From: Candidatus Aenigmatarchaeota archaeon
Lineage (GTDB): Archaea > Aenigmatarchaeota > Aenigmatarchaeia > CG10238-14 > SpSt-28
NCBI GenBank assembly: GCA_032249395.1
Contig: JAVVFY010000011.1
Coordinates: 1 to 18,507 of the forward strand
Length of the DNA: 18,507 bases
Reading direction: 5' to 3'
The notes under the pieces are model-generated. The model did no database searches, was not told the origin of the DNA, and saw only the letters and a program-made list of their open reading frames with translations. Below are positions 1-16,315 of this stretch, piece after piece. The number at the start of each line of letters is the position of its first letter. Position 1 is the stretch's first letter. A program made the position numbers and the translations under genes.

Positions 1-300
1 TCCAAACTTTGGAACTGCAAAACGTGGATTATAGGTCATTTACAAGCAGCTATAGAAATTAGAAAAGGAAACTTCAAAAAAATAGAAAAAGTTATCATAA
101 AATCAAGGCCAAAAATAGAAAAAGGAAAATTGCAAGAAATTATAATTTTGCCTGCTTTTAGCGATTTAGCTGGAAACCTACTTTTAAATAAAGAGCTCCC
201 TTCAGATTTCCTTTTTGAGAAAGTTATTGATATAAACAATTCAGAAGTCTATCTTTTGGATGGAAGTTACTTGGGGAAATTAAGTGAGTTAAGCATTTAA
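1..300 (+). CDS. 3' part of a calcineurin-like metallophosphoesterase (COG1407-like), truncated by the window start
   Basis: Frame 1 is open from 1 to TAA at 298-300. Manual translation gives ...WIIGHLQAAI...IILPAFSDLAG...VYLLDGSYLGKL. The GH, LPAF and YLLDGxYLG motifs are typical of this archaeal family. Not in the ORF track. Confidence 0.7.
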   Translation, partial: SKLWNCKTWIIGHLQAAIEIRKGNFKKIEKVIIKSRPKIEKGKLQEIIILPAFSDLAGNLLLNKELPSDFLFEKVIDINNSEVYLLDGSYLGKLSELSI

Positions 301-322
301 CCTTTTCTTTTGAATTTGAGAT

Positions 323-961
323 ATGGTAAGAAAGCAATACATCCAAACTCTTCTCAATCTTCAGAAAGACTTTTCAAGAAAATATTATGTGAACCTTTAT
401 GAATCATTTGATCCTAGAAGATGGTTAAGTAGCAAGGAAGTCAAATTAGAACTAATTTGGCCAAAGAATGTTATGGAAGAATACGAAGCTTTTGAAAAAG
501 GTAAGTGTAAGTCTTTAGATTTTGCTTTTTTAATTTATTCAGATGAAGATAAATCGAATAAGCTCGAAAGAAAATATTTTCTTATTATAAAATACTCTCC
601 ATATACTTCTCAACGCTCTTCTTTAATATTTTATCCTAAAGTTTACTCTCATTCTTGTTATTTCTACGAGTTTCAGACAGTCTCTTTAGGAAAAATCTAT
701 CTAACTTGCAAACATGTTTATGCTGCTTTAAGAGAGGTAGATGCTATAGCTAAAAGATTTTCTCTTCCAGTTGAACAATCTTACTTCTATCCAAGAAGCC
801 CGTTTTTGCCAAGAAAGTTCGAAGAAATAGAGAAAAGCAAAGATAAGGCTGAAGTAAAACTTGAGAGGGCGTTCAGATTGTTAGAAGAGGAGCTATACAT
901 AAACGAGTTAGATTCTTTAAGAAGATTAAACAGAAGATTGAGGTATTTGAAAAAAGAATAA
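323..961 (+). CDS. Hypothetical protein with SWIM-type zinc finger
   Basis: 212-aa ORF. HSC-x16-CKHVYAA resembles the SWIM CxC...CxH motif, with His in place of the first Cys. Confidence 0.6.
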   Translation: MVRKQYIQTLLNLQKDFSRKYYVNLYESFDPRRWLSSKEVKLELIWPKNVMEEYEAFEKGKCKSLDFAFLIYSDEDKSNKLERKYFLIIKYSPYTSQRSSLIFYPKVYSHSCYFYEFQTVSLGKIYLTCKHVYAALREVDAIAKRFSLPVEQSYFYPRSPFLPRKFEEIEKSKDKAEVKLERAFRLLEEELYINELDSLRRLNRRLRYLKKE

Positions 962-971
962 AAATCCTTTC

Positions 972-1013
972 GAAACTACCACAGGATCTTGGGTTTATCA
1001 GGTTTCCAGCCGG
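972..1013 (-). other. 3' arm of the 23S pre-rRNA processing stem (BHB)
   Basis: Inverted repeat of 5925-5966. The central helix GUCA/UGAU is flanked by 3-nt bulges AAG and AAA and by long helices. Predicted cut between 995 and 994. Confidence 0.9.
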
Positions 1014-1326
1014 CTCGGGCGATTGGGAGTGGCGGGCTTACCGCTCGCCCGAAGGCTCGCGGCTTACACCCCCACCCCATCAACGTTATCGTCTATAACA
1101 GCCCTCGTCTCTCTGCCGGGTCTCCCCAACAGAGAGAATGGCCGTCTATTTTTCCGGGTGGTTTCCCCCTTAGATGCCTTCAGGGGTTATCCACTGGGGC
1201 GTGGCTGCCCGGCATGCCAAATGGACAACCGGTACACCAGAGGCCCCGGGAGCGCGTTCCTTTCGTACTTGCGCTCCCTTCCGGTCAGACGGCCAGCACC
1301 CCCAGTAGATAGCGACCGAACTGTCT

Positions 1327-1458
1327 TTGCCGCTGCATGCGAAGATAGAGTAGAGAGTAGACTATAGATTAAAATTTAGGTAAGTTTACGACCCGAGAAC
1401 GATACCCAATTCATCCTTAGCAAAATGCTACGTCTTTGGGTAGTGCTTCGCATGCAGT
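1327..1458 (-). other. 132-nt ORF-less BHB intron after ~G2597 (E. coli numbering)
   Basis: 12-bp terminal stem (1333-1344/1446-1457), central helix GUCG/CGGC, bulges UG|A and AA|A. Removal restores GUCGUG|AGACAG. Confidence 0.93.
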
Positions 1459-1490
1459 CACGACGTTCTGAACCCAGCTAACGTCCCCCT

Positions 1491-2273
1491 TTAACCAGTG
1501 GACACCTGTACCCATAGCCTTGAGGAGGTAAAATTTACAAAATTTTTCCATTCTTCAAAATTATGAAAAGAATTTTTCCCTTCATTACACAAATTAGCTA
1601 CTACATCTAGGATTTTATTTTTCTCAATCCCAAACCATGTTTTACTTTTCTTGGATATTCTTACTCCATCTAAGAATCTAATTTCCTTGGCAAATTTCAA
1701 TATTTCTTCTTTCTTTGTGAGTACTACTTCATTTTTCCATATCGACGGTCTAAATCCTAGTTTTTCCAGTATTTTCTTTATGAAAATCTTTAATGATTCA
1801 TTTTTAACTGTTACTTGAATTCTTTTGTTAACTATCCATAATTTCTTGGTTTTGTGCCACTTACATCCCAAAATCACTGAGCCTTCGGCGGAAAAGAAAC
1901 TTCGAATGAAACTTATTAGGTTATCAGAGGATATACTTTCTATTGATGGTAGCCTAATATTGTTGTTTTCCTTTCTTTTCCAATCTGGTATAAAGGTCTG
2001 GAGAATTTCTACGACTGTCTTGTTACAAACTCTAATGATTTTAACTTGTTTTCTATCGACTCTTTCTGTAAAATGCAAATCTCCGAATATTATCTTCATA
2101 TTATCCTCACATACTTGTATCAACTTTTCTTCTTTTGCAGCAAATATTACTTCAAAATGTCTATGTTTTTTGTTAATTCTTACGGTACCATCTGCTAATA
2201 GAAGACCAACTATTTCCCAAAACTCCTTCTTATTTTTTACCTCCTCAATTTGGCCGCTTGCAGTTGAGGGCAT
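1491..2273 (-). CDS. Double-motif LAGLIDADG homing endonuclease
   Basis: Motifs WEIVGLLLADG and FIRSFFSAEG. The ATG at 2273 follows an SD-like GGGTGAT. The ORF crosses both boundaries of intron 1514-2249. Confidence 0.9.
   Translation of the reverse strand: MPSTASGQIEEVKNKKEFWEIVGLLLADGTVRINKKHRHFEVIFAAKEEKLIQVCEDNMKIIFGDLHFTERVDRKQVKIIRVCNKTVVEILQTFIPDWKRKENNNIRLPSIESISSDNLISFIRSFFSAEGSVILGCKWHKTKKLWIVNKRIQVTVKNESLKIFIKKILEKLGFRPSIWKNEVVLTKKEEILKFAKEIRFLDGVRISKKSKTWFGIEKNKILDVVANLCNEGKNSFHNFEEWKNFVNFTSSRLWVQVSTG
1514..2249 (-). mobile_element. 736-nt BHB intron after ~A2542 carrying most of a LAGLIDADG homing endonuclease gene
   Basis: 14-bp terminal stem (1520-1533/2235-2248), central helix GGCC/GGCU, bulges AA|A and AU|G. 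Removal restores GGCCAA|GGGU. AT-rich insert in GC-rich rRNA. Confidence 0.92.
2250..2257 (-). other. 8-nt 23S micro-exon GCGGCCAA (~2535-2542, helix 91)
   Basis: Needed to rebuild UGGCCGUGCAGCA|GCGGCCAA|GGGU, in which UGGCCG pairs with CGGCCA. Bounded by BHB cut sites on both sides. Confidence 0.9.
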
Positions 2274-2357
2274 TCATATCACCCAATTTCTATATATTAA
2301 TTCTACACCAATATATAAACTTTATCTGGTTAAGGTTCAATAAAGAACGCCCTCAAT
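2258..2357 (-). other. 100-nt BHB intron after ~A2534 containing a promoter, RBS and start codon
   Basis: 12-bp terminal stem UUGAGGGCGUUC/GAAUGCCCUCAA, central helix GCAG/CUGC, bulges CA|A and AA|G. Confidence 0.9.
2278..2326 (-). promoter_or_regulatory. BRE/TATA promoter and Shine-Dalgarno for the LAGLIDADG ORF 1491-2273
   Basis: On the minus strand: GATAAAG (2326-2320), TTTATATA (2319-2312) and GGGTGAT (2284-2278), the last 4 nt before the ATG. Confidence 0.65.
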
Positions 2358-2414
2358 TGCTGCACGGCCAGGAGGGGGGGAGCCGACAGCTACGCACCAA
2401 CGCGCCGGGTCAAT

Positions 2415-2465
2415 TTGCCTGTCGCTATCTGCAAGGAAACGTAGACCCACGCAGATAGCTTTACT
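2415..2465 (-). other. 51-nt BHB intron after ~2477 (helix 89 loop), largely antisense to 23S 2052-2079
   Basis: Stem GCUAUCUGC/GCAGAUAGC. Relaxed BHB with central helix GCCC/AGGC (one mismatch) and bulges AC|A and AA|A. Removal restores GCCCAC|AUUGACC. Confidence 0.88.
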
Positions 2466-2637
2466 GTGGGCTTTCACCGGCCACGGGCCCATTATCCCCG
2501 AGGTAGCTTTTCTGATACCACCGGCCCCCATTAATGGGAACCGATGTATCGCTAACCCACGCTTTCGCGGCTGGAACCCTCGCTTTGTGGGTTCCAGTCA
2601 GCCCACCTTTTGCGTTTGCACTCTACCCCGGATTTCT

Positions 2638-2722
2638 TTCGGGTGAAAAACTCCCATCAATAGCTACCCCGCTAATCATTCAATCATTCGGGAGCGACCT
2701 TATCATTACGGGAGTTTTTCAT
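2638..2722 (-). other. 85-nt BHB intron after ~C2306 (helix 84 loop)
   Basis: 12-bp terminal stem UGAAAAACUCCC/GGGAGUUUUUCA, central helix CGGG/CCCG, bulges UC|A and AA|A. Removal restores GGGUC|AGAAAUCC. Confidence 0.93.
2657..2706 (-). ncRNA. Putative intron-encoded box C/D sRNA
   Basis: In order: AUGAUAA (C), 12-nt guide GGUCGCUCCCGA, AUGA (D'), UUGA spacer, AUGAUUA (C'), 12-nt guide GCGGGGUAGCUA, UUGA (D). This is the canonical archaeal spacing, and each box is 1 nt off consensus. Confidence 0.72.
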
Positions 2723-2795
2723 GACCCGGGTGAGGTGAGCTTTGGGCCCCCTCGATATCTTTTCGAGGGGGTGCCGCCCCAGCCGAACTGCCCAC

Positions 2796-2828
2796 TTCGC
2801 CAAGAGTTAGCCGATTGACTAACTCTTT
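2796..2828 (-). other. 33-nt minimal hairpin BHB intron after ~G2234
   Basis: Hairpin AAGAGUUAGUC-AAUC-GGCUAACUCUU, central helix CGCU/GGCG, bulges AG|A and AA|G. Removal restores GCGCUAG|GUGGGCAG. Confidence 0.9.
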
Positions 2829-3122
2829 CTAGCGCTGTCCCCTCGTCGGGTAAGCTGTAGAGTCCCAGAAGGCTGGTGTTACACTTGCCCCTCGGCCTCG
2901 GCCGAAGCCTACGCCTGATAGCGGGTCCCAGCTACTCTATGCAACCAGGACTCTACAGCAACGCCAGGCTGCAGTAAAGCTCTACGGGGTCTACGTTTCC
3001 CACTGGGGGTCTCCGGCCTATTCACCGGAAAGCCGATTTCGCCGGGTCCCACCCCGGGACAGTGCCCAGGTCGTTAAGCTGTTCACAGGCCGCCATTTAA
3101 GCGGCAAGGGATTATGCTACTT

Positions 3123-3167
3123 GTGTCGCCCTAGGCGGCGATCATTAAATCAGATGACCGCCTGAGA
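3123..3167 (-). other. 45-nt BHB intron after ~A1927
   Basis: Central helix GUCG/CGAC, bulges UA|U and AC|A, inner stem AGGCGG/CCGCCU. Position 1927 is an established archaeal 23S intron site. The loop contains CUGA-UUUA-AUGAUCG. Confidence 0.88.
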
Positions 3168-4650
3168 TACGACGGTCAGAGTTACCGCCGCCGCTCTGCG
3201 GGGCTTAGCCCGGTTGGAACCGGGTTTCACACACCGCAGCTGGGCAAGCCTCAGGGACTGTACTCATCCTTTCGGACTAGCAGTCCCCTGCGTTTTTGTT
3301 AAACAGTCGCCTGGGCCTTGTCACTGCAACCTGCGGTCCCTCCCATCCTTTGTCCTCTAATGAGGACTCAGGATGGTCAAGACCACAGGCACCCCTTCTA
3401 GCGAACATACGGGGCCAACTTGCCGATTTCCCTGGGGTGGGTTCTCCCGACACGCCGTTCCCTTCTCAGGAAGCCCACCTGTGCCGGTTCTCGGTACGGT
3501 CTAGGGGGATCCTTGTGGATTGCCTTTTCACCGGCTCCAGGGATCGGCCGAACTTCCCATTCGGGAAGCCCATCCTGCCTTCAGCCTCTTCTCCTCATTA
3601 CGAGACTCCGAGGCCTTAAGCAGTTGGCTTGCGTCGGCCTACCCCGAAGCGTCGGCAATCCACCCTAGCCTTGCGGCACGTACCCCCTAGGTTCCGGAAT
3701 ATTAACCGGATTCCCTTTCTCGGGCACGCCGATTAAGGGTGCCCTTAGGACCGACTAACTGCCGGCTGACGAACATTGCCGGCAAACCCTTGGGCTTCAG
3801 GCGGCCGGGATTCTCACCCGGCTCGGCTGCTACTTTCGGCGGGATCTGCATTGCTGCGTGGTCCACTGGAGCTCACGCCCCAGCTTCTGCCCACGCAGCA
3901 CGCCCCCCTACCAGGCCTCTTCGGCCTCCGGGGTCTCGGTGGTCGGCTTAGTCCCTTCCATCTTCAGGGCACTACCCCTCGGCGGGTAAGTTGTTGTACA
4001 CTTCTTAGCTGATGGCTACTTTTAGGCCCACAGCCCCGCTGTCTAAGGGGTAGTACCCCTTCGTCGTTTAGCCGACACTTAGGGACCTTAACCCCGGTCT
4101 GGGTTGTTCCCCTCACGAGTGCCGAGCTTACCCCAGCACTCATTTTCCCGCCGTCTACGGGGCTGGCGGATTCGGAGTTTGACAGAGAGGCTGAGCCTTT
4201 CGGCCCTTGACCCCTCGATCAGTAACTCTACCCCGCCAGCACCCTCGGGCGAGACTGCTCTGTGGAGCATATCGGGGGGAACCGGCTATGAGGCCGCTCG
4301 ATTGGCTTTTCACCCCTAATCCTGGCTCACGAGAGGGATTGGCATCTCACCACCTCTATCGGGCCTCCATCCCCCTTTCGGGGGACTTCACCCTGGCCAG
4401 GATTAGATCGCGGCCCTTCCGGTCGTAGGCGAGTGACTTCAGGCACTTTCATACCCCGCGCCTCGCTCTTTCGAGCTGCGCGCAAGTCGCTTTCGCTTCG
4501 GCTTCGTGGTTTCACCACTTAACCTCGCCACTCGCCTACACTCCCCGCCCCGTTTTTCCAAACGGACGCCAGGACGGTGTAAGCTCCCTCTCGCTTTTTC
4601 AGCTTCGAGGGAGCACCTTTCCCGCCCTGGCAGACTATAGCCACCTGGTT

Positions 4651-5346
4651 TCAGGCTCTTTTAATGGGAGACAAGTAGGTTTTCCTTACCAAAGGGATTG
4701 TTTGCAAGAATGTCAAAGCATTTTTATTCCTTATTCTTAGACGAAACGCATTGTTAGAATGTTTATAGAGATAGGGTCCGTTAGAGTTTATCCCCAATTT
4801 ATTCAACATTAGCTTTAAGTCTGATAAAGGTGGACATTCTGTTTGATTATTCCATGAATGGTATACATAGATTACCGGTTTACCATCTTCAAGACATATA
4901 CTCCCTTCTGCATCAACAAATCCTGCAATATACCATTTCTGAATTTCTGGAGGAGCTTCTAAGATTAATCTTGGGGTTCCCCACCATTTTTGTGTTTTAT
5001 TCGGTGGATACTCGAAAACTTTTGTAAAGAAAAGAAATAATGGTTTTGAATCTACTTGCCATACGAAATCTTCCCCACTTTTCATTATTTTTACTTTTTT
5101 GTTAAATAGATCCTGTGAGATGCGATTTACTACATTTTCTAAGAATGCTTGATCTTTCTGATAGATTCTTACCTTATAACTTCTCTTGGCTCTGCTTAAA
5201 TTTCCGTCTCTAAGTAGACCAACAAAGTATGCAAGAGGAGGGGTAAGTTTCTTGGGGATAGCTATGCTGTTTTTCCTTAAATTCATCTCGAGAGTAACGT
5301 TTATGGGTATTGATGGATGTATTGGTATATCTATGTCTGGATTCAT
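4651..5346 (-). CDS. Double-motif LAGLIDADG homing endonuclease
   Basis: Motifs LAYFVGLLRDG and WYIAGFVDAEG. The linear stop at 4651-4653 lies in the downstream exon. Confidence 0.92.
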   Translation of the reverse strand: MNPDIDIPIHPSIPINVTLEMNLRKNSIAIPKKLTPPLAYFVGLLRDGNLSRAKRSYKVRIYQKDQAFLENVVNRISQDLFNKKVKIMKSGEDFVWQVDSKPLFLFFTKVFEYPPNKTQKWWGTPRLILEAPPEIQKWYIAGFVDAEGSICLEDGKPVIYVYHSWNNQTECPPLSDLKLMLNKLGINSNGPYLYKHSNNAFRLRIRNKNALTFLQTIPLVRKTYLSPIKRA

Positions 5347-5394
5347 ATTTATATATATTGTTTTATAGTATTTAAAGCTTACTACTTGTCTCCT
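4661..5394 (-). mobile_element. 734-nt BHB intron after ~A502 (domain I) encoding a LAGLIDADG endonuclease
   Basis: 12-bp terminal stem GGAGACAAGUAG/CUACUUGUCUCC, central helix GGUG/CAUU, bulges AA|A and AA|A. Removal restores GGGGUGAA|AAGAGCCUGAAACC. Confidence 0.92.
5369..5376 (-). promoter_or_regulatory. TATA box for a probably leaderless endonuclease transcript
   Basis: TTTAAATA ends 22 nt upstream of the ATG at 5346, and no SD motif is visible. Confidence 0.55.
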
Positions 5395-5924
5395 TTCACC
5401 CCGTTTGCACGGTGCTTTTCAGCTTTCCGTCACCGTACTAGTGCGCTATCGGACTTGGGATGTGTTTAGGGTTGGATGTTAATGCCACCCAGCTTCCCAC
5501 TGCCAAACCAGGCAATGGTACTCAGGATACCTGGAATCTTCCTTCCCTCCTTCCCCTACGGGACTATCACCCTCTAAGGTGGGGCATTCCAGCCCACTTC
5601 GGGTCGGAGGGTTAGGAAGTGCCCAGGTCCTGCAACTCCACATTCCACTTGGCTTATCGCCAAGCGGTTCGGTTTGCCCTCTGCCGGTTTCGGTCGCCCC
5701 TACTCCCGGCATCTCGTTTGATTTCTCTTCCTGCGGGTACTGAGATGCTTCACTTCCCCGCGTCCCCCTTCCAGGCTTTTAGGCCTGGAATGCCGCTTAA
5801 CGCGGCAGGATTCCCATTCAGGCATCCGGGGGTCTACGGCTGCATGCGCCTAACCCCGGCTTATCGCAGCTTGCCACGCCCTTCCTCGGCTCCCAAGCCG
5901 AGCCATCCACCAGGTGGCGTACCT

Positions 5925-5966
5925 CCGGCCGGAAACCCTTTGACCCCAAGATCCTGCGGTAGTTTC
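5925..5966 (-). other. 5' arm of the 23S pre-rRNA processing stem (BHB)
   Basis: Pairs with 972-1013. Predicted cut between 5939 and 5938. Confidence 0.9.
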
Positions 5967-6201
5967 ATCTAATGGTCTCTTAAAGACAGTTCGTTCTTCA
6001 TTCTCTTTTCAGAAACGACCTTCAAATCATCGACCTTCAACACTTCACCCTTTAGCATAAAGCTAAAGAGTTGCATACAAAGTGGCTAGCAAGGTGTCCT
6101 CCTTCTTCATTTAATTTTTCAGAAAAGAGGTAGCTAGCTCATCGCCACTTTTCATGAGCTTAAGCTTCCATAATAATCACTAAAAATATTGTAGTAATAT
6201 G

Positions 6202-6217
6202 TATTTAAATCTTTTTG
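6202..6217 (-). promoter_or_regulatory. Likely 23S rRNA promoter (BRE + TATA)
   Basis: Minus-strand CAAAAAGA-TTTAAATA lies immediately upstream of a structured ~210-nt leader. Predicted start near 6178. Confidence 0.6.
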
Positions 6218-7093
6218 TACTGCACGATTAAGATAAGTAATGAAAGTAGTGTTTTCGAAAAAAATTATAAATTATTAGAATAAAAAGTTTTGAGCTATCC
6301 AAAAACCCCCTGAAAAAATTCTAAACTTTTTTAATTTTCCGAAAGAAAAAGGTTTTAAGTTTTCGAAGCAAAATCATGCGAAGAAAATGATTGGTTAGAG
6401 GTGCATTCAAACGAATATGTAGAAAGAAGAAAAAGTTGCAATTTTTTGATGAAGACACTCCTAGCCTTGACCAACATTTATGAGTATGCAAGACTTTTGT
6501 GTAGTAGTTACACTACAAGCTATATAAATTTCAATTAAAAATGAAAGAGCCTTTCCTTTAATGCGTCCAGCAGACGATCATGCTAGAAAGAATGGAATAG
6601 CTTTAAACGCTAGTAGTTTGGTATTTTACTATCTTAACAACACAATCATAGCTACAAAGATTTCCTTTAAAAAAGTTATTAGACTTGAATTTTAGATATT
6701 GACTATCTTCATGGTAATATTATTCAAGAAATATTTTTTGGTAACGATAAAGTCCTTTTCGTATCTTTGTACACATATCCTACTTGTCTATAGACTGACA
6801 AGTTCTCATAAAAGAATTATTTGAATTATAAATCGCACTATTCAATAAGGGAAGAAGAGTATTTAAAAGTTTTGAAAAAAGCTTGGGAAAAATATAAAAG
6901 TTTAATCCAGAATTACCTATAATTTCAGTAATGACAAACTTAATTTAAATGATTATAGCTATTTAAAAATTGGAAAAATGATAGCAATCTTGAAAATTCC
7001 ACTGTTTGTCGTTTTGAAATGGACTACAAAGTTGAAAAAATGCCAAAGTGCTTTTGTCAGTTATTTATTGGTTTGGAAACTTAAAATCTAACT

Positions 7094-7693
7094 TTATTGT
7101 TCTTTTCCAACAAAATCTTCAAGCTTAAAATTAAACTCCTCATCTTTTTTTATTTCTCCTCTTTCTTTCAAAATTTCTCTAGCTAGCAAATAGAAAATTA
7201 AAGCTAACGATTTTCTTCCCCTGTTGTTTGCTGGTATTATTAAATCGATGTGCTTCGTTTCATTTGAGCTATTACAAATTGCAATTACGGGGGTTCGTGC
7301 TTTCACTGCTTCCTGCAAAGCTCTTTTATCTGTTAGCGGATCAGTTATTAACACCACATCCGCCTCATAAAAATATTCACAATTAGGATTTGTTAACGTT
7401 CCTGGCAAAAATCTTCCCACGAAAACTTTAGCATTTACAGCTTCTCCAAATTTTTCAGCAGCGTTTTTCGCTATTTTTTTTCTAGTCGCAACTAATATGT
7501 TTTTACTTCTTGCCAAAAACTTTGCAGCGATTCTTATTCTTTCGTCTATTTTCCTTAAATTTAAAATTGTTAAGCCATCGGGTCTTGTTTTATAAACGAA
7601 CTCTTTCATGTCTTTAGTCTTAGTTTTAGCTCCAAAACAAATTCCGCTAGCTAAATAATCTTTCCTTGGTATTAATAGTTTAGTAGGCATCAA
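7094..7693 (-). CDS. rps2: 30S ribosomal protein uS2 (archaeal S2)
   Basis: YLASGICFG, RPDGLTILNL, GRFLPGTLTNP and DLIIPANNRGRKSLAL motifs. Confidence 0.97.
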   Translation of the reverse strand: MMPTKLLIPRKDYLASGICFGAKTKTKDMKEFVYKTRPDGLTILNLRKIDERIRIAAKFLARSKNILVATRKKIAKNAAEKFGEAVNAKVFVGRFLPGTLTNPNCEYFYEADVVLITDPLTDKRALQEAVKARTPVIAICNSSNETKHIDLIIPANNRGRKSLALIFYLLAREILKERGEIKKDEEFNFKLEDFVGKEQ

Positions 7694-7726
7694 TTTATTT
7701 TATGTTTAAAATTTAAAACTTTACTT

Positions 7727-8608
7727 TTAACGTTTCTTTTTTAATTTCTCTTTAAGAATTAATAATCTCTTTAAAACTTCAGATTTAGTCCTCTTCCAAT
7801 TGTCCCTATTTTCAACCTTTAATGTTATGAATACGTGCTCCTTATCGCTTTGTTCATTAAAATATGGACCTTCAACAATATTAAACCCTTTCAAACTTTT
7901 TTTTATCTCATTTTCAAGCTTTTCTAAACCTATCTTCAGTTTAAGTGGAAACTCTACTCTAACTGAAATAATAGCATTCTCTTTATCTCTATCTAAGATT
8001 ACAGAGTTCAACAACATTGCGTTAGGTATCTTTATTTCTTCGCCTTCTTCCAATTGAAATACTGAATAAAAGAGTGTTACTTTTTTTATAGATCCTTTAT
8101 AACCTAGGTCAGTATTCTCAACAGAAAGAAACTTATAAGGAGGCAGCGGAACTAGTCCGTAGGGAATTTGAGATGAGAGAATTTTTATCTTTTTCCCAAC
8201 TTCAACATATCTAGTTGAAAGTATAATAATTCCTGCAAATATGTTTGAAAGGATTGGCTGTAGCGCTAAACCCAAAACCAAACCAAGTACTACACTACTT
8301 TGTAGTATAATGCTTGTATCTACATTCCATATTTTTAGAATAACTAAAGCTGCTATCAGAAAAGCTAAGACATGCAAAAGATTTGAGAAATTTTTTGAAT
8401 AAGGAAGATTTAATCTATCTAAAGATTTTATTATGTAGGAGTTTATTAAGAGCAAAAATGTAATAACGGCAAGTGACAACGATCCTCTAGTAGCATAAAT
8501 TTTCATATTATTCGGAATAAAAGGAATTGAAGCCAGTAGGATTACAGAGAAGATTATTAATATTAAAATTGTTTTGTTCAAATTCGACTTTCCTTTTTGA
8601 ATTTTCAT
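7727..8608 (-). CDS. mscS: Small-conductance mechanosensitive channel family protein
   Basis: N-terminal TM helices, GLVLGLALQPILSNIFAGIIIL and IKIPN motifs. I chose the ATG at 8608 rather than 8653 because it leaves room for the divergent promoters. Confidence 0.88.
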   Translation of the reverse strand: MKIQKGKSNLNKTILILIIFSVILLASIPFIPNNMKIYATRGSLSLAVITFLLLINSYIIKSLDRLNLPYSKNFSNLLHVLAFLIAALVILKIWNVDTSIILQSSVVLGLVLGLALQPILSNIFAGIIILSTRYVEVGKKIKILSSQIPYGLVPLPPYKFLSVENTDLGYKGSIKKVTLFYSVFQLEEGEEIKIPNAMLLNSVILDRDKENAIISVRVEFPLKLKIGLEKLENEIKKSLKGFNIVEGPYFNEQSDKEHVFITLKVENRDNWKRTKSEVLKRLLILKEKLKKKR

Positions 8609-8653
8609 TAAATATATTGATTTAATTATAAAAAACTTTGAGTTAATACTCAT

Positions 8654-11407
8654 ATGATTGAAATTTTTAACGAGAAAATCAAGGTAGCATTGAACAGATT
8701 TGGTATAAGAGAGTTAACAGAAGTTCAAAAACTATCTTTTAAGCCAATCTATGATGGCAAAGATGTTCTCATAATTTCTCCTACAGGAACTGGAAAAACA
8801 TTAGCAGCTTTATTACCAATTTTTGAAAAATGGTTAAAAGAAAGACCAAAACCAACAAGCATTCTTTATGTTTCCCCAATGAAAGCTTTGAATAGAGACC
8901 AACTTGAGCATTTAAGATTTTGGGCTGAACAGCTTGGGATTGAAATTTCTGTTAGACATGGAGATACTTCTAGTTATGAAAGAAAAATGCAGGCAGAGTT
9001 TCCAAACGACATGCTAATAGTTACGATAGAAGCTTTGCAATCGTTGCTTGTTGGTAAGAAAATTAGAGAGTTTTTAAGGAATGTGAAATGGGTTATTTTA
9101 GATGAGGTTCATGAAGTTGTAGATTCTAAGAGAGGAGTTCAATTGACTTTAGCTTTAGAAAGGTTAAGAGAACTTTCGAAAGACTTCCAAACTATAATGC
9201 TTTCTGCAACAATTGGCGACGAAAAAAAGGTTAGCGAGTTTTTCTCCAAAAAGAGATCTGAGATAATTAAAGTTGAAATGGATAAATTAATAGAAATAAA
9301 GGTTTTTTATCCTTTAGCAAGCGACTTAGATGAAAAAAATGCAATGAAGATTTTTTCCTCGAAAGAAAGCGCAGCTAGAGTAAGATTTATTTTAGAAAAG
9401 TTAAAAGAGTTTAATTCAGCTTTAATATTTACAAATACTAGAGAATTTGCTGAGGTATTAGCAAGCAGGATAAGACTTTTGAGCAAAATTAACATCGGAA
9501 TACATCATTCAAGCTTAAGTAAGGATGTAAGAGAAAAAACAGAAAAAGAGTTTAAAGAAGGTAAGCTTAAGGCTTTGGTTTGTACTTCTAGTTTGCAGTT
9601 AGGAGTAGATATCGGAAATGTTGATGCTGTTTTTCAATATCAGTCACCAAGAGAAGTTATTCAACTTTTACAAAGGGTTGGAAGAAGTGGGCATAAATTT
9701 TGGAAGAAAAGCGTCGGTCTAATAATTGCAACAGACGAAGATGATATTTTAGAATCTGCTGTTATTGCGAGAAAAGCTTTGAATAAGGAATTAGAAACAT
9801 TTAAGGTTCATGAAAAAGCTTATGATGTTTTGGCTCATCAAATTGTTGGTTTAACTTTTGATTTTGGCGAAATTTCAATAGAAAAAGCTTTTGAAATTGT
9901 AAAAAGAGCAAAGCCTTATGAAAAACTGTCAATAAATGAGTTTTTGCAAGTTTTAGATGTTTTAATAAAAATAGGAATTTTAAGCTCTGAGAACGGTATA
10001 ATAAGAAAGAGGAGAAAAGCCTATGAATATTATTTTTCTCAACTATCCACAATTCCTGATGTTAAAGAGTATAAAGTTTACAACATTGTTGATCAAAGTT
10101 ACATAGGAACTTTACACGAAGAGTTTGTAGCTTTGTATGGGGAGGAAGGCTTTTCCTTTATTTTAAGAGGCGAACCTTACAGAATCGTTTCAATAGAAGA
10201 AGATAAAATTTTCGTCGAGCCAAGCAAAGATTTTGAGGCTGCTATTCCTGCTTGGGAAGGAGAATTAATTCCTGTTCCTTTTGAAGTTGCGAAAGAGGTT
10301 GGAGAATTAAGAGAAAGAATTTTGATGGAAGATCTAAAAGAATATCCTATGGATGAAAATAGCGTGAATGTTGCGAGAAAATTCTTTCAAGAACAATCAA
10401 AATATTTTTTACCAACTGATAAAGAAATTTTTATTGAATTTTTTGAGAATAAGGTTGTAATTCATTCTTGTTTTGGAAATAAAGTTAATGAAACTTTAAG
10501 TAAGTTAATTTTAAGCAAGCTTACTCACTTTGCTAGAAGCAAGGTAGATGCTTATAGAATAATTTTTATTTTTGAAGGTTTGGTTGATGAAAAGCTTGCA
10601 AATAAAATTAAAGATATTATTGAAAATTATGAAGGAAATTTGGAAGAAGATTTAGATACTTTTGTCTCTCAAACGGATTTGTTTTATTTAAGATTTACAA
10701 ACGTTGGTAAAAGGTTTGGAATAATAAGAAGCGATGCAGAAGTTACAAAAACAATTGTTAGAGGTTTAGCAAAAGAATTTTTTGGGAGCGTTGTTTGGCA
10801 GGAAGCTTTAAAGGAATTGAAAGTTGAAAAGCTGGATATTGAGAAATTAAGAGAAGTTCTAAAGATGATAAAAGAAGGGAAGATCAAAGTTTTTGTTGTT
10901 AAAGGAATTTCTCCTTTGGCAAAGCTGGGATTAAAAAAGGTTTTTGTTGAATTTTATGAAGAAAAGTCGAAAGATATTTTAGAAATCTTCAAGAAGAGAG
11001 TTTTAGAAAGTAAAATAAAATTAATTTGTTTAAATTGTGGCACTTGGAAAGAAGTCTATACTTTGGCCGAGATGCCAGAGGAAATTACATGTAAGCACTG
11101 TAAAGCAAGGTTATTAACAATAGTTAAATCGACAAATTTGAAAGCCGAAAAAATAGTTGATAAGTATGTTGGAAAAAAGAAAATGAATAAGGTTGAAGAG
11201 TTAGAATTCAAAAAACTTTTAGCGAAGGCAACGCTTTTTATGACATACGGTAAAAAAGCTGCTATTGCTTTTTCTGTTAGAGGGATTGGGGTGGAGAATG
11301 CTAAGAGAATTTTGAGTAGATATTTTAGAGATGAGAATGAATTTTTTGAAGCACTCTTTGATGCTGAAAAAACTTTTATAAGGAATAGAAGATTCTGGAA
11401 AATATAG
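8654..11407 (+). CDS. lhr: Lhr-like SF2 (DEAD/DEAH) helicase with C-terminal Zn-finger/HhH region
   Basis: SPTGTGKT, RHGDT, DEVH, SAT, QRVGRSGH, STIPD and IPAWEGE motifs. C-terminal CLNC...CKHC and RGIG. Confidence 0.93.
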   Translation: MIEIFNEKIKVALNRFGIRELTEVQKLSFKPIYDGKDVLIISPTGTGKTLAALLPIFEKWLKERPKPTSILYVSPMKALNRDQLEHLRFWAEQLGIEISVRHGDTSSYERKMQAEFPNDMLIVTIEALQSLLVGKKIREFLRNVKWVILDEVHEVVDSKRGVQLTLALERLRELSKDFQTIMLSATIGDEKKVSEFFSKKRSEIIKVEMDKLIEIKVFYPLASDLDEKNAMKIFSSKESAARVRFILEKLKEFNSALIFTNTREFAEVLASRIRLLSKINIGIHHSSLSKDVREKTEKEFKEGKLKALVCTSSLQLGVDIGNVDAVFQYQSPREVIQLLQRVGRSGHKFWKKSVGLIIATDEDDILESAVIARKALNKELETFKVHEKAYDVLAHQIVGLTFDFGEISIEKAFEIVKRAKPYEKLSINEFLQVLDVLIKIGILSSENGIIRKRRKAYEYYFSQLSTIPDVKEYKVYNIVDQSYIGTLHEEFVALYGEEGFSFILRGEPYRIVSIEEDKIFVEPSKDFEAAIPAWEGELIPVPFEVAKEVGELRERILMEDLKEYPMDENSVNVARKFFQEQSKYFLPTDKEIFIEFFENKVVIHSCFGNKVNETLSKLILSKLTHFARSKVDAYRIIFIFEGLVDEKLANKIKDIIENYEGNLEEDLDTFVSQTDLFYLRFTNVGKRFGIIRSDAEVTKTIVRGLAKEFFGSVVWQEALKELKVEKLDIEKLREVLKMIKEGKIKVFVVKGISPLAKLGLKKVFVEFYEEKSKDILEIFKKRVLESKIKLICLNCGTWKEVYTLAEMPEEITCKHCKARLLTIVKSTNLKAEKIVDKYVGKKKMNKVEELEFKKLLAKATLFMTYGKKAAIAFSVRGIGVENAKRILSRYFRDENEFFEALFDAEKTFIRNRRFWKI

Positions 11408-11519
11408 GTTTATTTTTTATAATCATGAAAATAATATATTACTATTAACAAGCGATGATTAAATTGGTTAGGCGATGATAAATGAATAAATAGAAGGTTA
11501 TGAGCTTGAGTTATTTTTT

Positions 11520-11747
11520 CTATTTTTGCTTTATTTCTTCTTTTAGCTTCTTAACATTCCTCTTTAAAAATTTAAGTTCATCTACAACTATTTTTCGACA
11601 AAAATTCTGAACGTCTGTTGTTGTTATTTTTATTTGCTGAACTAACTTAGTAAGATGCTCTGGTATACTAGATTCCCAGAATTTTATTCTAGATTCAACT
11701 AAGTTTAACACCCTTTCTAATATTTCTTCTTTATCCTTATCGTTCAT
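11520..11747 (-). CDS. Small hypothetical protein
   Basis: Charged, helical-looking ORF. An SD-like GGGTGAT precedes the ATG at 11747. Confidence 0.55.
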   Translation of the reverse strand: MNDKDKEEILERVLNLVESRIKFWESSIPEHLTKLVQQIKITTTDVQNFCRKIVVDELKFLKRNVKKLKEEIKQK

Positions 11748-11796
11748 CTCAATCACCCTAAAATATAATTTTTAAATTTGGAAAATAAATATTTTT

Positions 11797-12759
11797 GTGA
11801 AGATAGTTTGTTTTGGAGGAGGAAATGCATTACCAAAAGCTGTTCTAGCTGGCTTGAAAAATTATGAAGTAGATATAACAACAATAACATCAATGGTAGA
11901 TAGTGGCGGCTCCAGCGGGAAATTAAGAAAAGAACTAAACGTATTGCCGCCAGGAGATATTAGAAGACATCTACTAGCTTTATCAAACGCTCCTCAGTGG
12001 AAAAAAGATTTGTTCTCATTTAGATTTGGGTCAGAAGATTTTGGTAGTGGTCATGTTGGACACCCATTTGGCAACATATTTATAGCACTACTGGAATATA
12101 TATTAAAAGATTATGAAAAAGTTTTAGAAATAGTACACCAATTTTTGGAAGTCAGAGGAAAATGTTTGCCGTCTACTATTGAAAAAACAACCCTTTACGC
12201 TATTCTTGAAAACGGAGAAATTATAGAGGGGGAAGATGAAATCGATGTTCCAAAAAAACATAATCCAAAATTAAAAATTAAAGAAATCTTTCTCAAACCA
12301 CAAGTTAAAGCATACGACAAAGCAATAGAAGCTATTGAGGAAAGTGATGCAATTATTATAGGTCCTGGAGATTTATATTCCTCTATATTGCCATGCTTTC
12401 TTCCAATAGGGACGAAAGATGCTATCTCTAAAAGCAGTGCAAAAAAGATTTTCATATGTCCACCATTAACAAAAATTGGGGAGACTAATGGTTTTTCGGT
12501 TTTGGATTTTTCTAAAGAAGTAGAGAAGTATATTGGTTGTTCGCTAGATTTTGTAATCTACAATAGCTCTCTTCCCCATGTAGAAAGATTAATGAAATAT
12601 AAAGCTAAAGAATCTTGGGTAGAGGATGTAGTAAAAATTAATGAAAATCTAGATGAAAGAGTTTTTATTGGAGAAAATCTTCTAGCAAACACAGACGAAA
12701 TTGTTTATGATGCTAACAAAGTTTCAAAAATTATTATGAGGTTGGTGGCTAAATATTAA
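11797..12759 (+). CDS. yvcK: YvcK/CofD-like (UPF0052) family protein
   Basis: FGGGN, DSGGSSG, PPGDIR, GHPFGN, GEDEID and GPGDLYSSILP motifs. Confidence 0.9.
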   Translation: MKIVCFGGGNALPKAVLAGLKNYEVDITTITSMVDSGGSSGKLRKELNVLPPGDIRRHLLALSNAPQWKKDLFSFRFGSEDFGSGHVGHPFGNIFIALLEYILKDYEKVLEIVHQFLEVRGKCLPSTIEKTTLYAILENGEIIEGEDEIDVPKKHNPKLKIKEIFLKPQVKAYDKAIEAIEESDAIIIGPGDLYSSILPCFLPIGTKDAISKSSAKKIFICPPLTKIGETNGFSVLDFSKEVEKYIGCSLDFVIYNSSLPHVERLMKYKAKESWVEDVVKINENLDERVFIGENLLANTDEIVYDANKVSKIIMRLVAKY

Positions 12760-12798
12760 TTAAAATTTTTAAACGACCAATTAATCTTATTTTGTACT

Positions 12799-14046
12799 AT
12801 GAGCGGAATAGCAATAATTGGCTTACAATGGGGAGATGAGGGAAAAGGAAAAATATCCTATCTTTTATCTAGAGATGCGGATTATGTAGTTAGATTTCAA
12901 GGAGGTGCTAATGCTGGACATACTGTTGTTGTTGGTAATAAAGAACTAAAATTCAACATGATTCCGGCAGGAGCCGCAGCCGGGGCAAAACCTTGTATAG
13001 CAGCTGGTACGGTTGTAGATTTGTCGGAAGTAGTAGAAGAAATAGAAATACTTAAAAATATTGGAGTGTTCAAAGGACTCTTAATAAGCAGGAATGCAAA
13101 CGTAGTTTTGTCTATTCATAAGGAGTTAGATGGAATTATAGAAGAATTAAGAGGAAGTAAAGCAATCGGTACGACAAAAAGGGGAATAGGTCCTACTTAT
13201 GCTGACAAAATGCTTAGAATAGGAATAAGGATGGAAGATCTTTTAGACAAAAACCAACTAATATCTAAAATAAAACTATTAGAAGATTATCACAAGCTTA
13301 AATTAGACAATATAGATGAATATATTAGGGTTGCCGATTCGCTAAAAGATTATGTTTGTGATTTAGATATTATTATAAACGAAGAGCTCGATAAAGGAAA
13401 GAAAATAATTTTTGAAGGGGCTCAAGGAAGCTTGTTAGATATAGATCATGGTACATATCCTTATGTTACTTCTTCTAATACAACTATAGGAGCAATTTTT
13501 ACTAGTTGTGGAATTGGACCTAAAAAAATTTCTGAAGTTGTGGGAGTTACAAAAGCTTACACTACTAGAGTGGGGGCAGGCGTTTTTCCTACAGAACTTA
13601 AAAATGAGAAGGGAGAGATAATAAGAGAAAAAGGTAAAGAATATGGAACAACTACTGGTAGACCTCGAAGAGTCGGGTGGCTTGACATACCTCTATTAAG
13701 ATACGCTTCAAAAATAAACGATATAGACTGGATAGCAATGACTAAATTAGATATTCTGTCAGGTTTTGAAAAAGTTAATATATGTGTAGAATATGAAATT
13801 GATGAAAAAAGATTCAAAATAGTTTCTCCAAGCGTGAAAACTATGGAGAGAGCAAAACCAATATACATAGAATTGGATGGTTGGCCAGATTTGGAAAGAG
13901 AAGAATGGAAAAAAATTGCAAATAAGGGATTTGATGGCTTGCCAGAAAATGCAAAAACATACATTGAAACAGTAGAAAAATTGGTAGGAAAACCTATAAA
14001 AATTGTTTCTTTTGGAGCGGAAGCTGGAATGGAGGTAATAAAATAA
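12799..14046 (+). CDS. purA: Adenylosuccinate synthetase
   Basis: QWGDEGKGK, GGANAGHT, GTTKRGIGP, EGAQG, GTYPYVTSS and EYGTTTGRPRR motifs. Confidence 0.98.
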   Translation: MSGIAIIGLQWGDEGKGKISYLLSRDADYVVRFQGGANAGHTVVVGNKELKFNMIPAGAAAGAKPCIAAGTVVDLSEVVEEIEILKNIGVFKGLLISRNANVVLSIHKELDGIIEELRGSKAIGTTKRGIGPTYADKMLRIGIRMEDLLDKNQLISKIKLLEDYHKLKLDNIDEYIRVADSLKDYVCDLDIIINEELDKGKKIIFEGAQGSLLDIDHGTYPYVTSSNTTIGAIFTSCGIGPKKISEVVGVTKAYTTRVGAGVFPTELKNEKGEIIREKGKEYGTTTGRPRRVGWLDIPLLRYASKINDIDWIAMTKLDILSGFEKVNICVEYEIDEKRFKIVSPSVKTMERAKPIYIELDGWPDLEREEWKKIANKGFDGLPENAKTYIETVEKLVGKPIKIVSFGAEAGMEVIK

Positions 14047-15428
14047 TGGATATCCTAGAAGCAATAACTCCAATAGATGGTAGATATAAGGAGAAACTTT
14101 CTGGAATTGAAAATTATTTTTCTGAATATGCGTTAATAAAAGAAAGAATAAGGGTAGAGATAGAGTATTTAATTAAATTAGTTGAAGAAGTTGAAAAAGA
14201 AAGATTAAACAGATTACCAAAGGATTGGAAAGAGACTCTTAGAAAAATTCATGAAGAATTCAACCTTGAGGATGCAAAAAGGGTAAAAGAAATAGAAAAG
14301 AATGTGGGTCATGATGTTTTTGCAGTAGTTAAATTTATTGCAGAAAGACTAGAATCTCTAGGTCTCAACGAATTAAAGTCATTGGTTCATTTAGGATTAA
14401 CTTCAGATGACATTAATAATATTGCTTACTCGAGTCTGCTAAAAAGATTCAATAGAGAAGTTTTTATTCCATCATTAATAAAACTTTTAGACAAAATAGT
14501 TAGCCTATCTATGGAGTATAAAGATACTATAATGTTAGCCAGAACTCATGGAATGCCTGCAGTTCCAACAACATTCGGAAGATTCCTTATTAATTATGCG
14601 TATAGAATTGCTATAGTTTTGGAAGAATTATATAACACGAAATTTTACGGTAAGATTGGAGGGGCCGTTGGGGATTTCAATGCGTTAAAGTTTCTATATC
14701 CAACGGTTGATTGGATTTCTTTTGCAAAACATTTCATAGAATCTCAAGGATTGGAATATTTTCCTGCAAACACTCAGATATTACCTCATGATAAAATTTC
14801 GGATTATTTGAGTAAAGTAGCCCTTATTGCTTCTATTTTGTCAAATCTTTGCAGAGATCTATGGATGCTTAATATGCTTAGATATATATCTTTTACTTTT
14901 AGCAAGAGTGAAGTTCATTCTTCCACGATGCCCCATAAAGTAAATCCATTATTAATTGAGAATGCGGAAGGTTGCTTTGACTTATCTTCAGAAATTCTGG
15001 CATACATGAATAGAAGACTTATATCTATTAGACTTCATAGAGATTTGTCAGACTCTGTAATAAAAAGATTCTATGGATTGCCGCTTTCTCTTATTTATTT
15101 GGGTATAACTAATCTAATATCTGCATTTGAAAAAATGCTAGTTAATAAAGAAGCTATGTATATTGATGTTAGAAATCATCCTGAAACTCTTTCAGAACTG
15201 TATCAACTTTATTTAAAAAAGATTGGATTTTTTGATGCTTATGAAACTATTCAAAAGTTAACCAGAGAAAAACCAGAAAAAATATTAGAAGAGATAAAAA
15301 AACTTATACCAAAAGAAAAATTTGTAGAAATAGAGAAGTTAACTGTTTTAGAGTACTCTGGAGAAGCACAAAGAATTGTAGAGCTTTTGGCAAAAGAAAT
15401 AGAAAGCCTAAAGAAAAAATTTTTATAA
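14046..15428 (+). CDS. purB: Adenylosuccinate lyase
   Basis: TPIDGRY, HLGLTSDDI, ARTHG, SSTMPHKVNP and RDLSDS motifs. TAATG stop/start overlap with purA. Confidence 0.96.
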   Translation: MDILEAITPIDGRYKEKLSGIENYFSEYALIKERIRVEIEYLIKLVEEVEKERLNRLPKDWKETLRKIHEEFNLEDAKRVKEIEKNVGHDVFAVVKFIAERLESLGLNELKSLVHLGLTSDDINNIAYSSLLKRFNREVFIPSLIKLLDKIVSLSMEYKDTIMLARTHGMPAVPTTFGRFLINYAYRIAIVLEELYNTKFYGKIGGAVGDFNALKFLYPTVDWISFAKHFIESQGLEYFPANTQILPHDKISDYLSKVALIASILSNLCRDLWMLNMLRYISFTFSKSEVHSSTMPHKVNPLLIENAEGCFDLSSEILAYMNRRLISIRLHRDLSDSVIKRFYGLPLSLIYLGITNLISAFEKMLVNKEAMYIDVRNHPETLSELYQLYLKKIGFFDAYETIQKLTREKPEKILEEIKKLIPKEKFVEIEKLTVLEYSGEAQRIVELLAKEIESLKKKFL

Positions 15429-15734
15429 TTCACATCTGTCACTTAAAATTTTTTCTAGTATGGTTGTAATTTCTTTTTCTTCCTTAGAACAACCGTACCT
15501 TCTAGCAATATATTTACCTAACTCATAAGCTGTCATCAAAATAAATTCATTTCTCCCCCCATATCCTATAATTTCAGATGCGGACCTGTCTTGGATAACA
15601 TCGTATAGTCCAACGTCTTTAAGAATTTGTTTGGTGTCATACCTTTTATTCACTGAACAATGCATAGAGTAGTAATCTACAGTAAGTATTAAAGTTAAAG
15701 CCATTTCGATCCTGTATAAGCTTTCTTCTTTCAT
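15423..15734 (-). CDS. Hypothetical protein
   Basis: 103-aa ATG-initiated ORF convergent with purB. No motif recognised. Confidence 0.55.
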   Translation of the reverse strand: MKEESLYRIEMALTLILTVDYYSMHCSVNKRYDTKQILKDVGLYDVIQDRSASEIIGYGGRNEFILMTAYELGKYIARRYGCSKEEKEITTILEKILSDRCEL

Positions 15735-15940
15735 AGTGAAATATTTAGTGTAATAAAGCTTAAATATCTTTATAAATGTTCCTTTGTTAGACTAGATTTC
15801 TTATTATTTGCTACTACTGTAGGAGTTTAAAAATAGTTGGAATCGCCGAGTGAACTATTGTTAATCTGTTTATATCCCTCTCTTTCTTTTGCCATTTATT
15901 TTATTATCAATGATAAATTTAAAATGATAAATTTAAGATT

Positions 15941-16177
15941 ATGATTTGGGATAAAGTCGGTTTTGTTTTAGCGAGCAAGCAAAGAAGGGAAGTGTTTAGT
16001 TTTTTAAGAGAATTTGGAACGATTGGCGAGGTAGACCTTAAGATTAGAATAACAGCTTTCACTGGAGTTAAAAGAATTTTAATGGATTTTGAGAAGGAAG
16101 GTCTGATAAAAATTTAGGGAAATAAAAGTGAATTGACAAAAATAGGAAAAGAAGTTATGAAAAAATTTGTTTTCTAA
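15941..16177 (+). pseudogene. Winged-helix transcriptional regulator with an in-frame TAG
   Basis: MIWDKVGFVLASKQRREV...FEKEGLIKI*GNKSELTKIGKEV. The TAG at 16115-16117 interrupts the wing motif. Confidence 0.65.
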
Positions 16178-16315
16178 GATTTTAAGAAACTTTATGTTCA
16201 AATTAAAGCACAAACCTCAGAAATTTTTTCTTTTAGATATAGCAAATCAAACTGTTCAGATTGTAGTACTTCTCATAACTGTTTTAAAACTGTCGATATT
16301 TGCACACATTCCTGT

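Follow-up and report, generated by a model that had tools for sequence, protein, structure and literature searches.

Archaeal rRNA introns such as those coding for I-DmoI, I-Tsp061I and I-PorI carry the bulge-helix-bulge (BHB) motifs of the tRNA-splicing endonuclease, are released as stable circles and encode a monomeric LAGLIDADG protein with two motifs. In the known introns of this type the whole open reading frame (ORF), start included, lies inside one intron. The expression of these homing endonucleases is poorly understood, the host gene being untranslated and the excised intron circular. Here we analyse a locus in the 23S rRNA gene of a Candidatus Aenigmatarchaeota archaeon (assembly GCA_032249395.1, contig JAVVFY010000011.1, positions 1 to 18,507; "the window" is this whole stretch of 18,507 nt), which shares with these systems the BHB motifs, the intron circle and the two-motif protein. 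It departs from the I-DmoI-type introns in three ways: a second intron holds the apparent start codon and the candidate expression signals, the frame passes through an rRNA exon, and the next exon contains the stop codon.

Two introns and an 8-nt exon share one endonuclease frame

The host genome (0.75 Mb, 68% A+T; G000) has a G+C-rich 23S rRNA gene. At the locus, the Rfam large-subunit rRNA model expects GCAG-nn-gcggCCAAGGGU, and an 838-nt insertion must be opened in the RF02540 alignment. Two BHB introns (the small and the large intron) stand here 8 nt apart, on either side of a micro-exon, and the frame of a LAGLIDADG endonuclease runs across both (Table 1). A preliminary description, made from the letters of the window, had proposed this arrangement, and its coordinates all hold on rereading the sequence. 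The last seven codons of the ORF and its stop codon fall in the downstream rRNA exon.

In the intronless relatives L003 and L005 the sequence GCAGCAGCGGCCAAGGGTAC continues uninterrupted through both insertion sites, and L004, L006, L009, L010 and L026 are also intronless at both sites, with substitutions relative to GCAGCAGCGGCCAAGGGTAC. The sites align after annotated positions 2533 and 2541 of an E. coli rrl gene, which we take to be sites 2534 and 2542 in standard numbering, on the assumption that the rrl annotation starts one base late (an offset of +1). The layout is shared by 21 loci (the window, 17 metagenome loci and the genomes G001, G025 and G103), which reduce to 15 distinct sequence pairs, and every lineage of the set has, in this order, exon, small intron (75–128 nt), micro-exon and second intron. 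Its recurrence in 21 loci and 15 distinct pairs argues that the layout is more than chance. In L044/L045, a third BHB mini-intron of 36 nt, with junctions read by eye, lies 7 nt upstream of the small intron (at ~45 nt from it), and three introns thus stand in a row, with exons of 7 and 8 nt between them.

RNA contigs and BHB structures

Contigs of four hot-spring metatranscriptomes (X1–X4; assembled contigs, not reads) were mapped on positions 1200..2700. A joint 2249->1514, at which the contig goes back 736 nt, was present in all four runs, with depths of 196, 7.6, 5.4 and 5.7. The contigs with this joint are 171 to 766 nt long, and two of them (766 and 745 nt) match the length of the circle. 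The large intron is therefore cut and circularised at exactly the proposed ends. Over their mapped parts the four circle contigs differ from the window by 30, 25, 20 and 3 letters, which makes them close variants.

Contigs that end at 2358 go on with the reverse complement of GCGGCCAAGGGT(ACA) (4, 2 and 3 contigs in X1, X2 and X4, respectively), and contigs at 1513 run on into ...GCAGCAGCGGCCAA, the mature form in which the micro-exon is kept. These spliced contigs do not prove excision of the small intron for the window allele, because the rRNA of intronless relatives reads the same, and no contig of the 100-nt small intron or of its circle was found among the four runs. A further joint, 2513->2593, which skips 79 nt, occurred in all four runs, though the skipped stretch aligns to conserved rRNA; the contigs concerned probably come from other organisms.

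The enzymes expected for such splicing are encoded in the host genome: PF01974 (tRNA-splicing endonuclease) was matched at two loci (E 3.5e-27 and 1.0e-22), and RtcB by one PF01139 match (E 9.2e-173). The small-intron junctions read GCAG-CA|A-UUGAGGGCGUUC ... GAAUGCCCUCAA-CUGC-AA|G-CGGCC, giving a BHB with a GCAG/CUGC central helix, the bulges CA|A and AA|G, a 12-bp inner stem and a 5-bp outer helix. Across 12 lineages, 96% of the cells are paired, and the 12-bp stem has five compensatory pairs, in 22 cells. This covariation was reached by none of 500 shuffles, and slid controls pair in only 24–37%. The first central pair is non-standard in 4 of the 12 lineages.

The large-intron junctions read GGCC-AA|A-UUGAGGAGGUAAAA ... 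UUUUACCUCCUCAA-GGCU-AU|G. Here the central helix is formed by GGCC of the micro-exon and GGCU, the bulges are AA|A and AU|G, and the inner helix has 13–14 bp. Pairing was found in 99.4% of the cells, with four compensatory pairs (10 lineages; G025 and G103, which have shortened introns, and L043 and L051 were left out of the count), and on visual inspection G025 and G103 show the helices as well. A convincing outer helix was not seen for the large intron, which corresponds to a relaxed BHB form.

The micro-exon is thus both the outer helix of the small BHB and part of the central helix of the large one. Because both motifs use its nucleotides, they cannot form together, and the two introns probably fold and are cut in sequence. 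The minimum free energy (MFE) fold of 1495..2375 contains both the structure of the small intron and the 14-bp terminal helix of the large one, and in it the AUG and GGGUGAUA are paired. We rejected a cross-BHB, in which the 5′ site of the small intron would pair with the 3′ site of the large one so that the micro-exon is skipped, its central helix GCAG/GGCU being unpaired by eye.

The shared ends AUUGAGG/CCUCAA of the two introns had been taken, in the preliminary description, as a sign of common origin. This did not hold up. Of 12 lineages, just the window and L038 have the same 7-mer in both introns, and elsewhere the ends differ between the two introns, e.g., AUCUGAG vs. AUUGGGG. The likeness of GGCU to GGCC is forced by pairing to a palindrome. 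A shared origin of both introns was rejected, the shared termini being lineage-specific.

The endonuclease and its probable start codon

Each of the two LAGLIDADG motifs has a conserved acidic residue, as in the monomeric two-motif type of enzyme. An AF2 model of the ORF protein (pLDDT 86.3, pTM 0.86) gave I-Tsp061I (2dch), E-DreI and I-DmoI as top Foldseek matches (E 1e-9 to 1e-7); a sequence-profile search of solved structures returned nothing at E <= 0.01. A protein search found ten relatives with 58–95% identity, eight of them full length, and among 371 genomes of the phylum close homologues of the window protein were present only in G000 and G001. Ten lineages have an intact ORF, and where dS (synonymous divergence) is unsaturated the ratio of nonsynonymous to synonymous divergence (dN/dS) is 0.12–0.25 (window–L038, 0.14; G001–L048, 0.15; L042–L047, 0.12). 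These ratios indicate that the protein is under purifying selection.

Selection on the protein calls for a start codon ahead of motif 1. From the start of the large intron to motif 1, the frame is free of ATG, GTG and TTG in every one of the 12 lineages in which the motif was located (the motif of L046 was missed by the search pattern, and that of G103 is lost). L042, L046 and L049 have a GTG or ATG inside motif 1, where a start would remove most of the first helix. A canonical start codon stands eight codons before the large intron in all 14 lineages scanned (ATG in 13, GTG in L052), and in the window an in-frame TGA directly precedes the ATG at 2273. L052/L053, with GTG, have an in-frame ATG three codons further upstream, and a second in-frame start further up is also present in L042, L043, L044, L046 (GTG) and L049 (ATG).

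The codon occupies the same position of the small-intron stem in 12 of 12 aligned lineages. On the strand opposite the AUG only wobble-compatible changes are seen (A/G opposite U; C/U opposite G), and five pairs neighbouring the AUG have changed on both sides. The peptide predicted to begin at the ATG at 2273 is (M)PSTASGQIEEVK, and all eight full-length relatives start M[PS][SQ]T[AE][SC][GS]QI[EG]E. The ORF thus spans the small intron, the micro-exon and the large intron, and, as had been proposed, its only canonical start is in the small intron, where it is kept in every lineage examined. The best reading of these observations is that the AUG in the small intron is probably the start codon.

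Candidate promoter and Shine-Dalgarno signals in the small intron

A TATA-like box, a Shine-Dalgarno (SD)-like element and the ATG all lie inside the 100-nt intron, as first described. Upstream of 517 long ORFs of the host genome, GGTGA peaks at −9/−10 before the ATG (11 and 6 cases) and TTTAWA at −27/−28 (27 and 14 cases). Because of the TTTAWA peak at this distance, most mRNAs of the host genome are probably leaderless, and a minority of genes has GGTGA at −9/−10. The GGTGA at −10 and box 2 at −27 in the intron match these spacings.

A position weight matrix (PWM) was built from upstream regions of the host genome itself (the 516 ORFs used are a crude set and each column carries little information, so that its scores are supportive only). 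With the transcription start site (TSS) at the ATG (register 0), the score is 2.95, the 82nd percentile of genes, a value attained by 1.7% of random ATGs; when the TSS is moved 18 nt upstream (~2291), it is 5.0, the 99.9th percentile of random positions being 4.23. A block resembling a TFB recognition element (BRE) and TATA box recurs, together with an RGTGRT element, in small-intron loops that are otherwise divergent. Of 13 lineages, 10 have the SD-like element at −10, and 12 have a promoter-like register within −25..+2.

The spacings of the host genome, and the presence of the same signals in one-piece introns at site 2534 (below), lend support to the earlier reading of these elements as expression signals. 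They make it probable, though short of proof, that the small intron holds a promoter.

The two introns occur together

With the intronless exon as query, the region was found in 78 of the 118 genomes of the order. The pair is present in four of the 78 (G000, G001, G025 and G103), a single large intron at site 2534 in another four (G028, G039, G081 and G094), and in three the contig ends exactly at the site (G049, G050 and G100); the rest are uninterrupted. The pair is thus held by four genomes and the 17 metagenome loci. It is patchy among close relatives, being present in G000 and G001 and absent from G004 and G006 of the same genus.

Among the 371 genomes of the phylum, a pattern search found no 2542 intron behind an uninterrupted exon 1. 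A mini-2534 intron alone was not found either: the six matches to the pattern of a 2534 intron followed by uninterrupted exon (G039, G081, G028, G094, G151 and G179) are all one-piece introns that carry a LAGLIDADG ORF (of which the G094 contig includes just the 3′ end, and the ORF of G179 is more distant). The pair persists even where the ORF has decayed, both introns being retained in all four lineages concerned. The co-occurrence on which the idea of a co-dependent pair had been made to depend is therefore borne out in these genomes, and the architecture of the two introns is co-dependent.

The three contig ends (G049:C55:1, G050:C64:3283 and G100:C23:1) lie exactly at the 2542 site, where mixed intron-plus and intron-minus populations may break assemblies.

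Relation to one-piece introns at site 2534

The one-piece introns have the same insertion site as the small intron and the same 3′ end motif, ACUGnAn|GCGGCCAA. Those of G039, G081 and G028 also have a TTTAWATA box, an RGTGRT element 4–5 nt before the start, and the start codon; the gap from box to start is 38 nt in G039, as in the window, ~32 nt in G081 and ~43 nt in G028b. At its 3′ end the G094 intron reads GTGTCTCAGACTACAA, almost as the small intron of the L042/L047 lineages does there. Unlike the pair, the one-piece introns carry the ORF inside the same intron and are not accompanied by a 2542 intron, and their proteins share with that of the window 29–33% identity over aligned columns (31–37% in the search). 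Because of the shared upstream module and the G094 3′ end, the small intron has the appearance of a one-piece 2534 intron that has lost its ORF.

A neighbor-joining (NJ) tree of 18 proteins (BLOSUM62, with bootstraps; the partial ORFs of G094, G027, G010 and G005 left out), a weak method, recovered the pair clade in 100 of 100 bootstraps, a clade of the pair with the 2534 proteins in none of 100, and the pair with the G036/G053 genes in 85 of 100. The nearest outgroup in this tree consists of the LAGLIDADG ORFs L033 (G036:C52) and L032 (G053:C115), with ~25% identity and at loci without an rRNA match; these ORFs may be free-standing genes.

A split in situ of a one-piece 2534 intron is unsupported by the tree, though the upstream modules look alike. 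Because the tree separates the clades, we favour the view that a separate endonuclease gene at 2542 took over the signals of a relic, rather than such a split, an inference from a weak tree. We tentatively suggest a fuller scenario, to which we would give less than even odds. The small intron would be a domesticated remnant of a one-piece 2534 intron, whose promoter, SD and start were captured by the 2542 endonuclease gene. The enzyme would be made only from the internal-promoter transcript, in which the AUG is freed, and the splicing endonuclease would inactivate this mRNA by excising the ORF as a start-less circle.

Further insertions in the rRNA genes

On the minus strand of the window, at 2414-2464, the 23S gene has a 51-nt insertion with no ORF that is skipped in RNA contigs of all four runs (joint 2413->2465) and is a further mini-intron. 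At ~1328-1460 (minus strand), a 133-nt insertion after CGUCGUG is skipped in three runs (joint 1327->1461, with one extra G between), and a joint in X1 that goes back 132 nt points to a small intron in circular form. A second LAGLIDADG ORF (4651-5346, minus strand; 231 aa; PF14528, PF00961) lies in yet another insertion of this 23S gene and has its own ATG well upstream of its motifs.

In L028 (G071), L029 (G010) and L023 (G039) more insertions, some with ORFs, lie at helix 92/A-loop, tens of nt downstream of site 2542. Because of such further insertions near helix 92/A-loop in relatives, this 23S region appears to be an intron hot spot in the group. The 16S rRNA gene of the host genome (G000:C13:~470-3110; L060) spans >2.5 kb, which implies ~1 kb of insertions in it as well; one insertion is near its 3′ end, between GTAGCCGTAAGGG and the terminal GGATCACCTCC.

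Table 1. Coordinates in the window of the 23S rRNA gene, the two introns, the endonuclease ORF and the candidate signals.
Feature	Position	Strand	Remarks
Archaeal 23S rRNA gene, several insertions	~1003..5935	-	Rfam RF02540
Small BHB intron, 100 nt	2357..2258	-	E. coli site 2534; holds TATA-like boxes, SD-like element and putative start codon
5′ strand of small-intron closing stem, UUGAGGGCGUUC	2345..2356	-	Pairs with 2264..2275, covering AUG
TATA-like box 1, TTTATATA, at −46	2312..2319	-	Purine-rich AAAG before it; predicts TSS near 2291; kept in most lineages
TATA-like box 2, TTAATATATA, starts −27 from ATG	2291..2300	-	Spacing of leaderless genes in host genome
SD-like GGTGAT, GGTGA starts −10	2278..2283	-	Complementary to 16S 3′ end GGAUCACCUCCU
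Putative start codon ATG	2273..2271	-	In 3′ strand of small-intron stem; ATG in 11 of 12 aligned lineages
Micro-exon GCGGCCAA, 8 nt	2257..2250	-	Between both introns; ORF codons 6-8
Large BHB intron, 736 nt	2249..1514	-	E. coli site 2542; circle seen in RNA
5′ strand of 14-bp terminal helix, large intron	2235..2248	-	Also ORF codons 9-13
3′ strand of 14-bp terminal helix, large intron	1520..1533	-	Followed by GGCU
GGCU	1516..1519	-	Pairs with micro-exon GGCC
LAGLIDADG homing-endonuclease ORF, 260 aa	1491..2273	-	PF14528, E 4.5e-08, 33.7 bits (cutoff 22.5)
LAGLIDADG motif 1 GLLLADG, residues 23-29	2187..2207	-	Kept in all 9 full-length proteins
LAGLIDADG motif 2 FFSAEGS, residues 126-132	1878..1898	-	Invariant in 11 of 11 aligned proteins
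Stop codon of ORF	1491..1493	-	In downstream rRNA exon

A proposed mechanism of expression and its alternatives

We propose the following mechanism, to which, taken as a whole (split gene, internal-promoter transcript and paired inheritance), we give a probability of about 0.6. Both BHB introns would be removed from the pre-rRNA, and the large one accumulates as a 736-nt circle. The large intron supplies the body of the two-motif endonuclease without a usable start codon; the small intron, in its loop and in the 3′ strand of its stem, holds the putative start codon, the SD-like GGTGA and the TATA-like boxes. From the small intron the frame runs through the 8-nt rRNA exon and the large intron to the stop in the downstream exon. 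Because start and signals lie in the small intron, the excised intron could not be the translatable RNA. Most likely the mRNA would start from a promoter within the small intron, its TSS lying either near 2291 (a short leader with the SD) or at 2273 (leaderless). The AUG and the SD, base-paired in the pre-rRNA, would be free in this transcript, because the 5′ strand of the small-intron stem is absent from it. Both introns are inherited, and presumably home, as one unit. The layout, the BHB structures, the intron circle, selection on the ORF, the conserved start codon and frame and the joint occurrence of the introns are observed, and the internal promoter, translation from this AUG and joint homing are what the mechanism adds to them. 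The preliminary description had further suggested that a typical LAGLIDADG target of ~20 bp would span both insertion sites, and that the splicing endonuclease could act as an off-switch by cutting the start codon off the mRNA.

Several points weigh against this mechanism. No contig of the four runs covers 2271..2321 or joins the small to the large intron (contigs cannot show absence), and the only abundant RNA seen is the start-less circle. The PWM is weak, its ORF set crude, and about 40 registers were scanned with it; TATA-like words are cheap in an AT-rich loop, and the distance from TATA to start varies from 19 to 45 nt between lineages. Structural constraint may account for some of the conservation of the AUG, which belongs to a conserved stem, and the one-piece intron of G094 has a GUG at the same stem position, after the ORF, where it cannot be a start. 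The peptide encoded from the AUG to the large intron is no independent test, because it is fully dictated by RNA structure. Decay is also under way, since the ORF is broken or lost in four lineages: L051 has a stop at 121 and L052/53 one at 96, G025 has shrunk to 213 nt through a deletion inside it, and G103 has lost the ORF and retains 158 nt.

The small-intron AUG might serve as start with no internal promoter, if ribosomes engage the pre-rRNA made from the rRNA promoter while it is nascent or unspliced, ahead of intron folding and cleavage. The same evidence from start codon, frame and SD applies to this route, and it accommodates both the frequency of TATA-like words in AT-rich loops and the variable distance to the start. 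In the pre-rRNA fold, however, a stem of 12+4+4 bp hides both the AUG and the SD. Moreover, the BRE/TATA-like block is kept in a divergent loop at the promoter spacings of the host genome, and the one-piece 2534 introns carry the same block, so that we regard pre-rRNA translation as unlikely.

Archaeal rRNA-intron endonucleases are generally assumed to be made from excised introns. Here the large intron, linear or circular, would then be translated from a non-canonical start (AUU, AUA), and the upstream ATG would be an accident of the stem. The circle is indeed an abundant RNA species, its intron has at the 5′ end a strong SD-like GGAGGU complementary to the 16S tail, and G094 shows an RUG at this stem position without start function. 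The GGAGGU, however, is part of the 14-bp terminal helix, and a canonical start before motif 1 is missing in 12 of 12 lineages; the first codon of the large intron is AUU in 8 of the 10 aligned lineages and AUC in 2. Circularisation would not supply a start either: the frame upstream of the circle junction lacks a canonical one, and the junction would create an in-frame UAU-UGA. These features make translation of the excised intron improbable.

That the ORF is an unexpressed, decaying gene, its own start lost and the eight-codon extension to the ATG coincidental, would suit the four lineages with broken or lost ORFs and an upstream open stretch of only eight codons in the window, but it is very hard to reconcile with a dN/dS of 0.12–0.25 across ten intact lineages at a protein identity of only 58–95%, with both catalytic motifs kept and with start codon and frame kept in all lineages.

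If transcription does begin inside the small intron, as we favour, (i) selfish genes in rRNA operons would carry their own transcription units; (ii) an rRNA exon would be translated; and (iii) two mobile introns would be mutually dependent, a step from parasite towards fixed composite element. If the signals were captured and splicing acts as an off-switch, a contest between splicing and translation would set the dose of the selfish gene, and 8 nt of mature rRNA would also be protein-coding. The locus is a natural dissection in which the coding body and its putative signals are separated by a piece of rRNA, kept over deep divergence, and sister loci show three other states: both introns absent, a one-piece intron, and a decayed ORF. 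With its nucleotides shared by two BHB motifs, the 8-nt exon also puts the order and fidelity of archaeal splicing to a stringent test.

Comparison with other split and composite introns

ORFs of mitochondrial group I and group II introns can be fused in frame to a protein-coding upstream exon, and they then use the host promoter. The locus resembles them in that start and expression signals appear to be borrowed from outside the ORF's own intron. In contrast, the host is here an rRNA, the borrowed sequence is another intron, and the promoter would be internal.

Twin-ribozyme introns and twintrons are nested self-splicing ribozymes. The likeness to them is that two intron-type elements occupy one locus, with one serving the expression of the endonuclease of the other. 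The locus is nonetheless not a twintron: its introns are adjacent and of the protein-dependent BHB type, and the 8 nt that separate them remain in the mature rRNA and are present in intronless alleles.

Archaeal pre-tRNAs with several adjacent or nested BHB introns are known, and they share with the locus closely spaced BHB introns whose motifs have nucleotides in common. The locus differs from these pre-tRNAs in having an rRNA as host and a protein-coding frame that spans both introns. In the literature consulted, which does not extend to 1990s work in subscription journals, we found neither an ORF across two BHB introns nor a micro-exon in an archaeal rRNA. The locus is a variant of the known archaeal theme of intron plus homing endonuclease.

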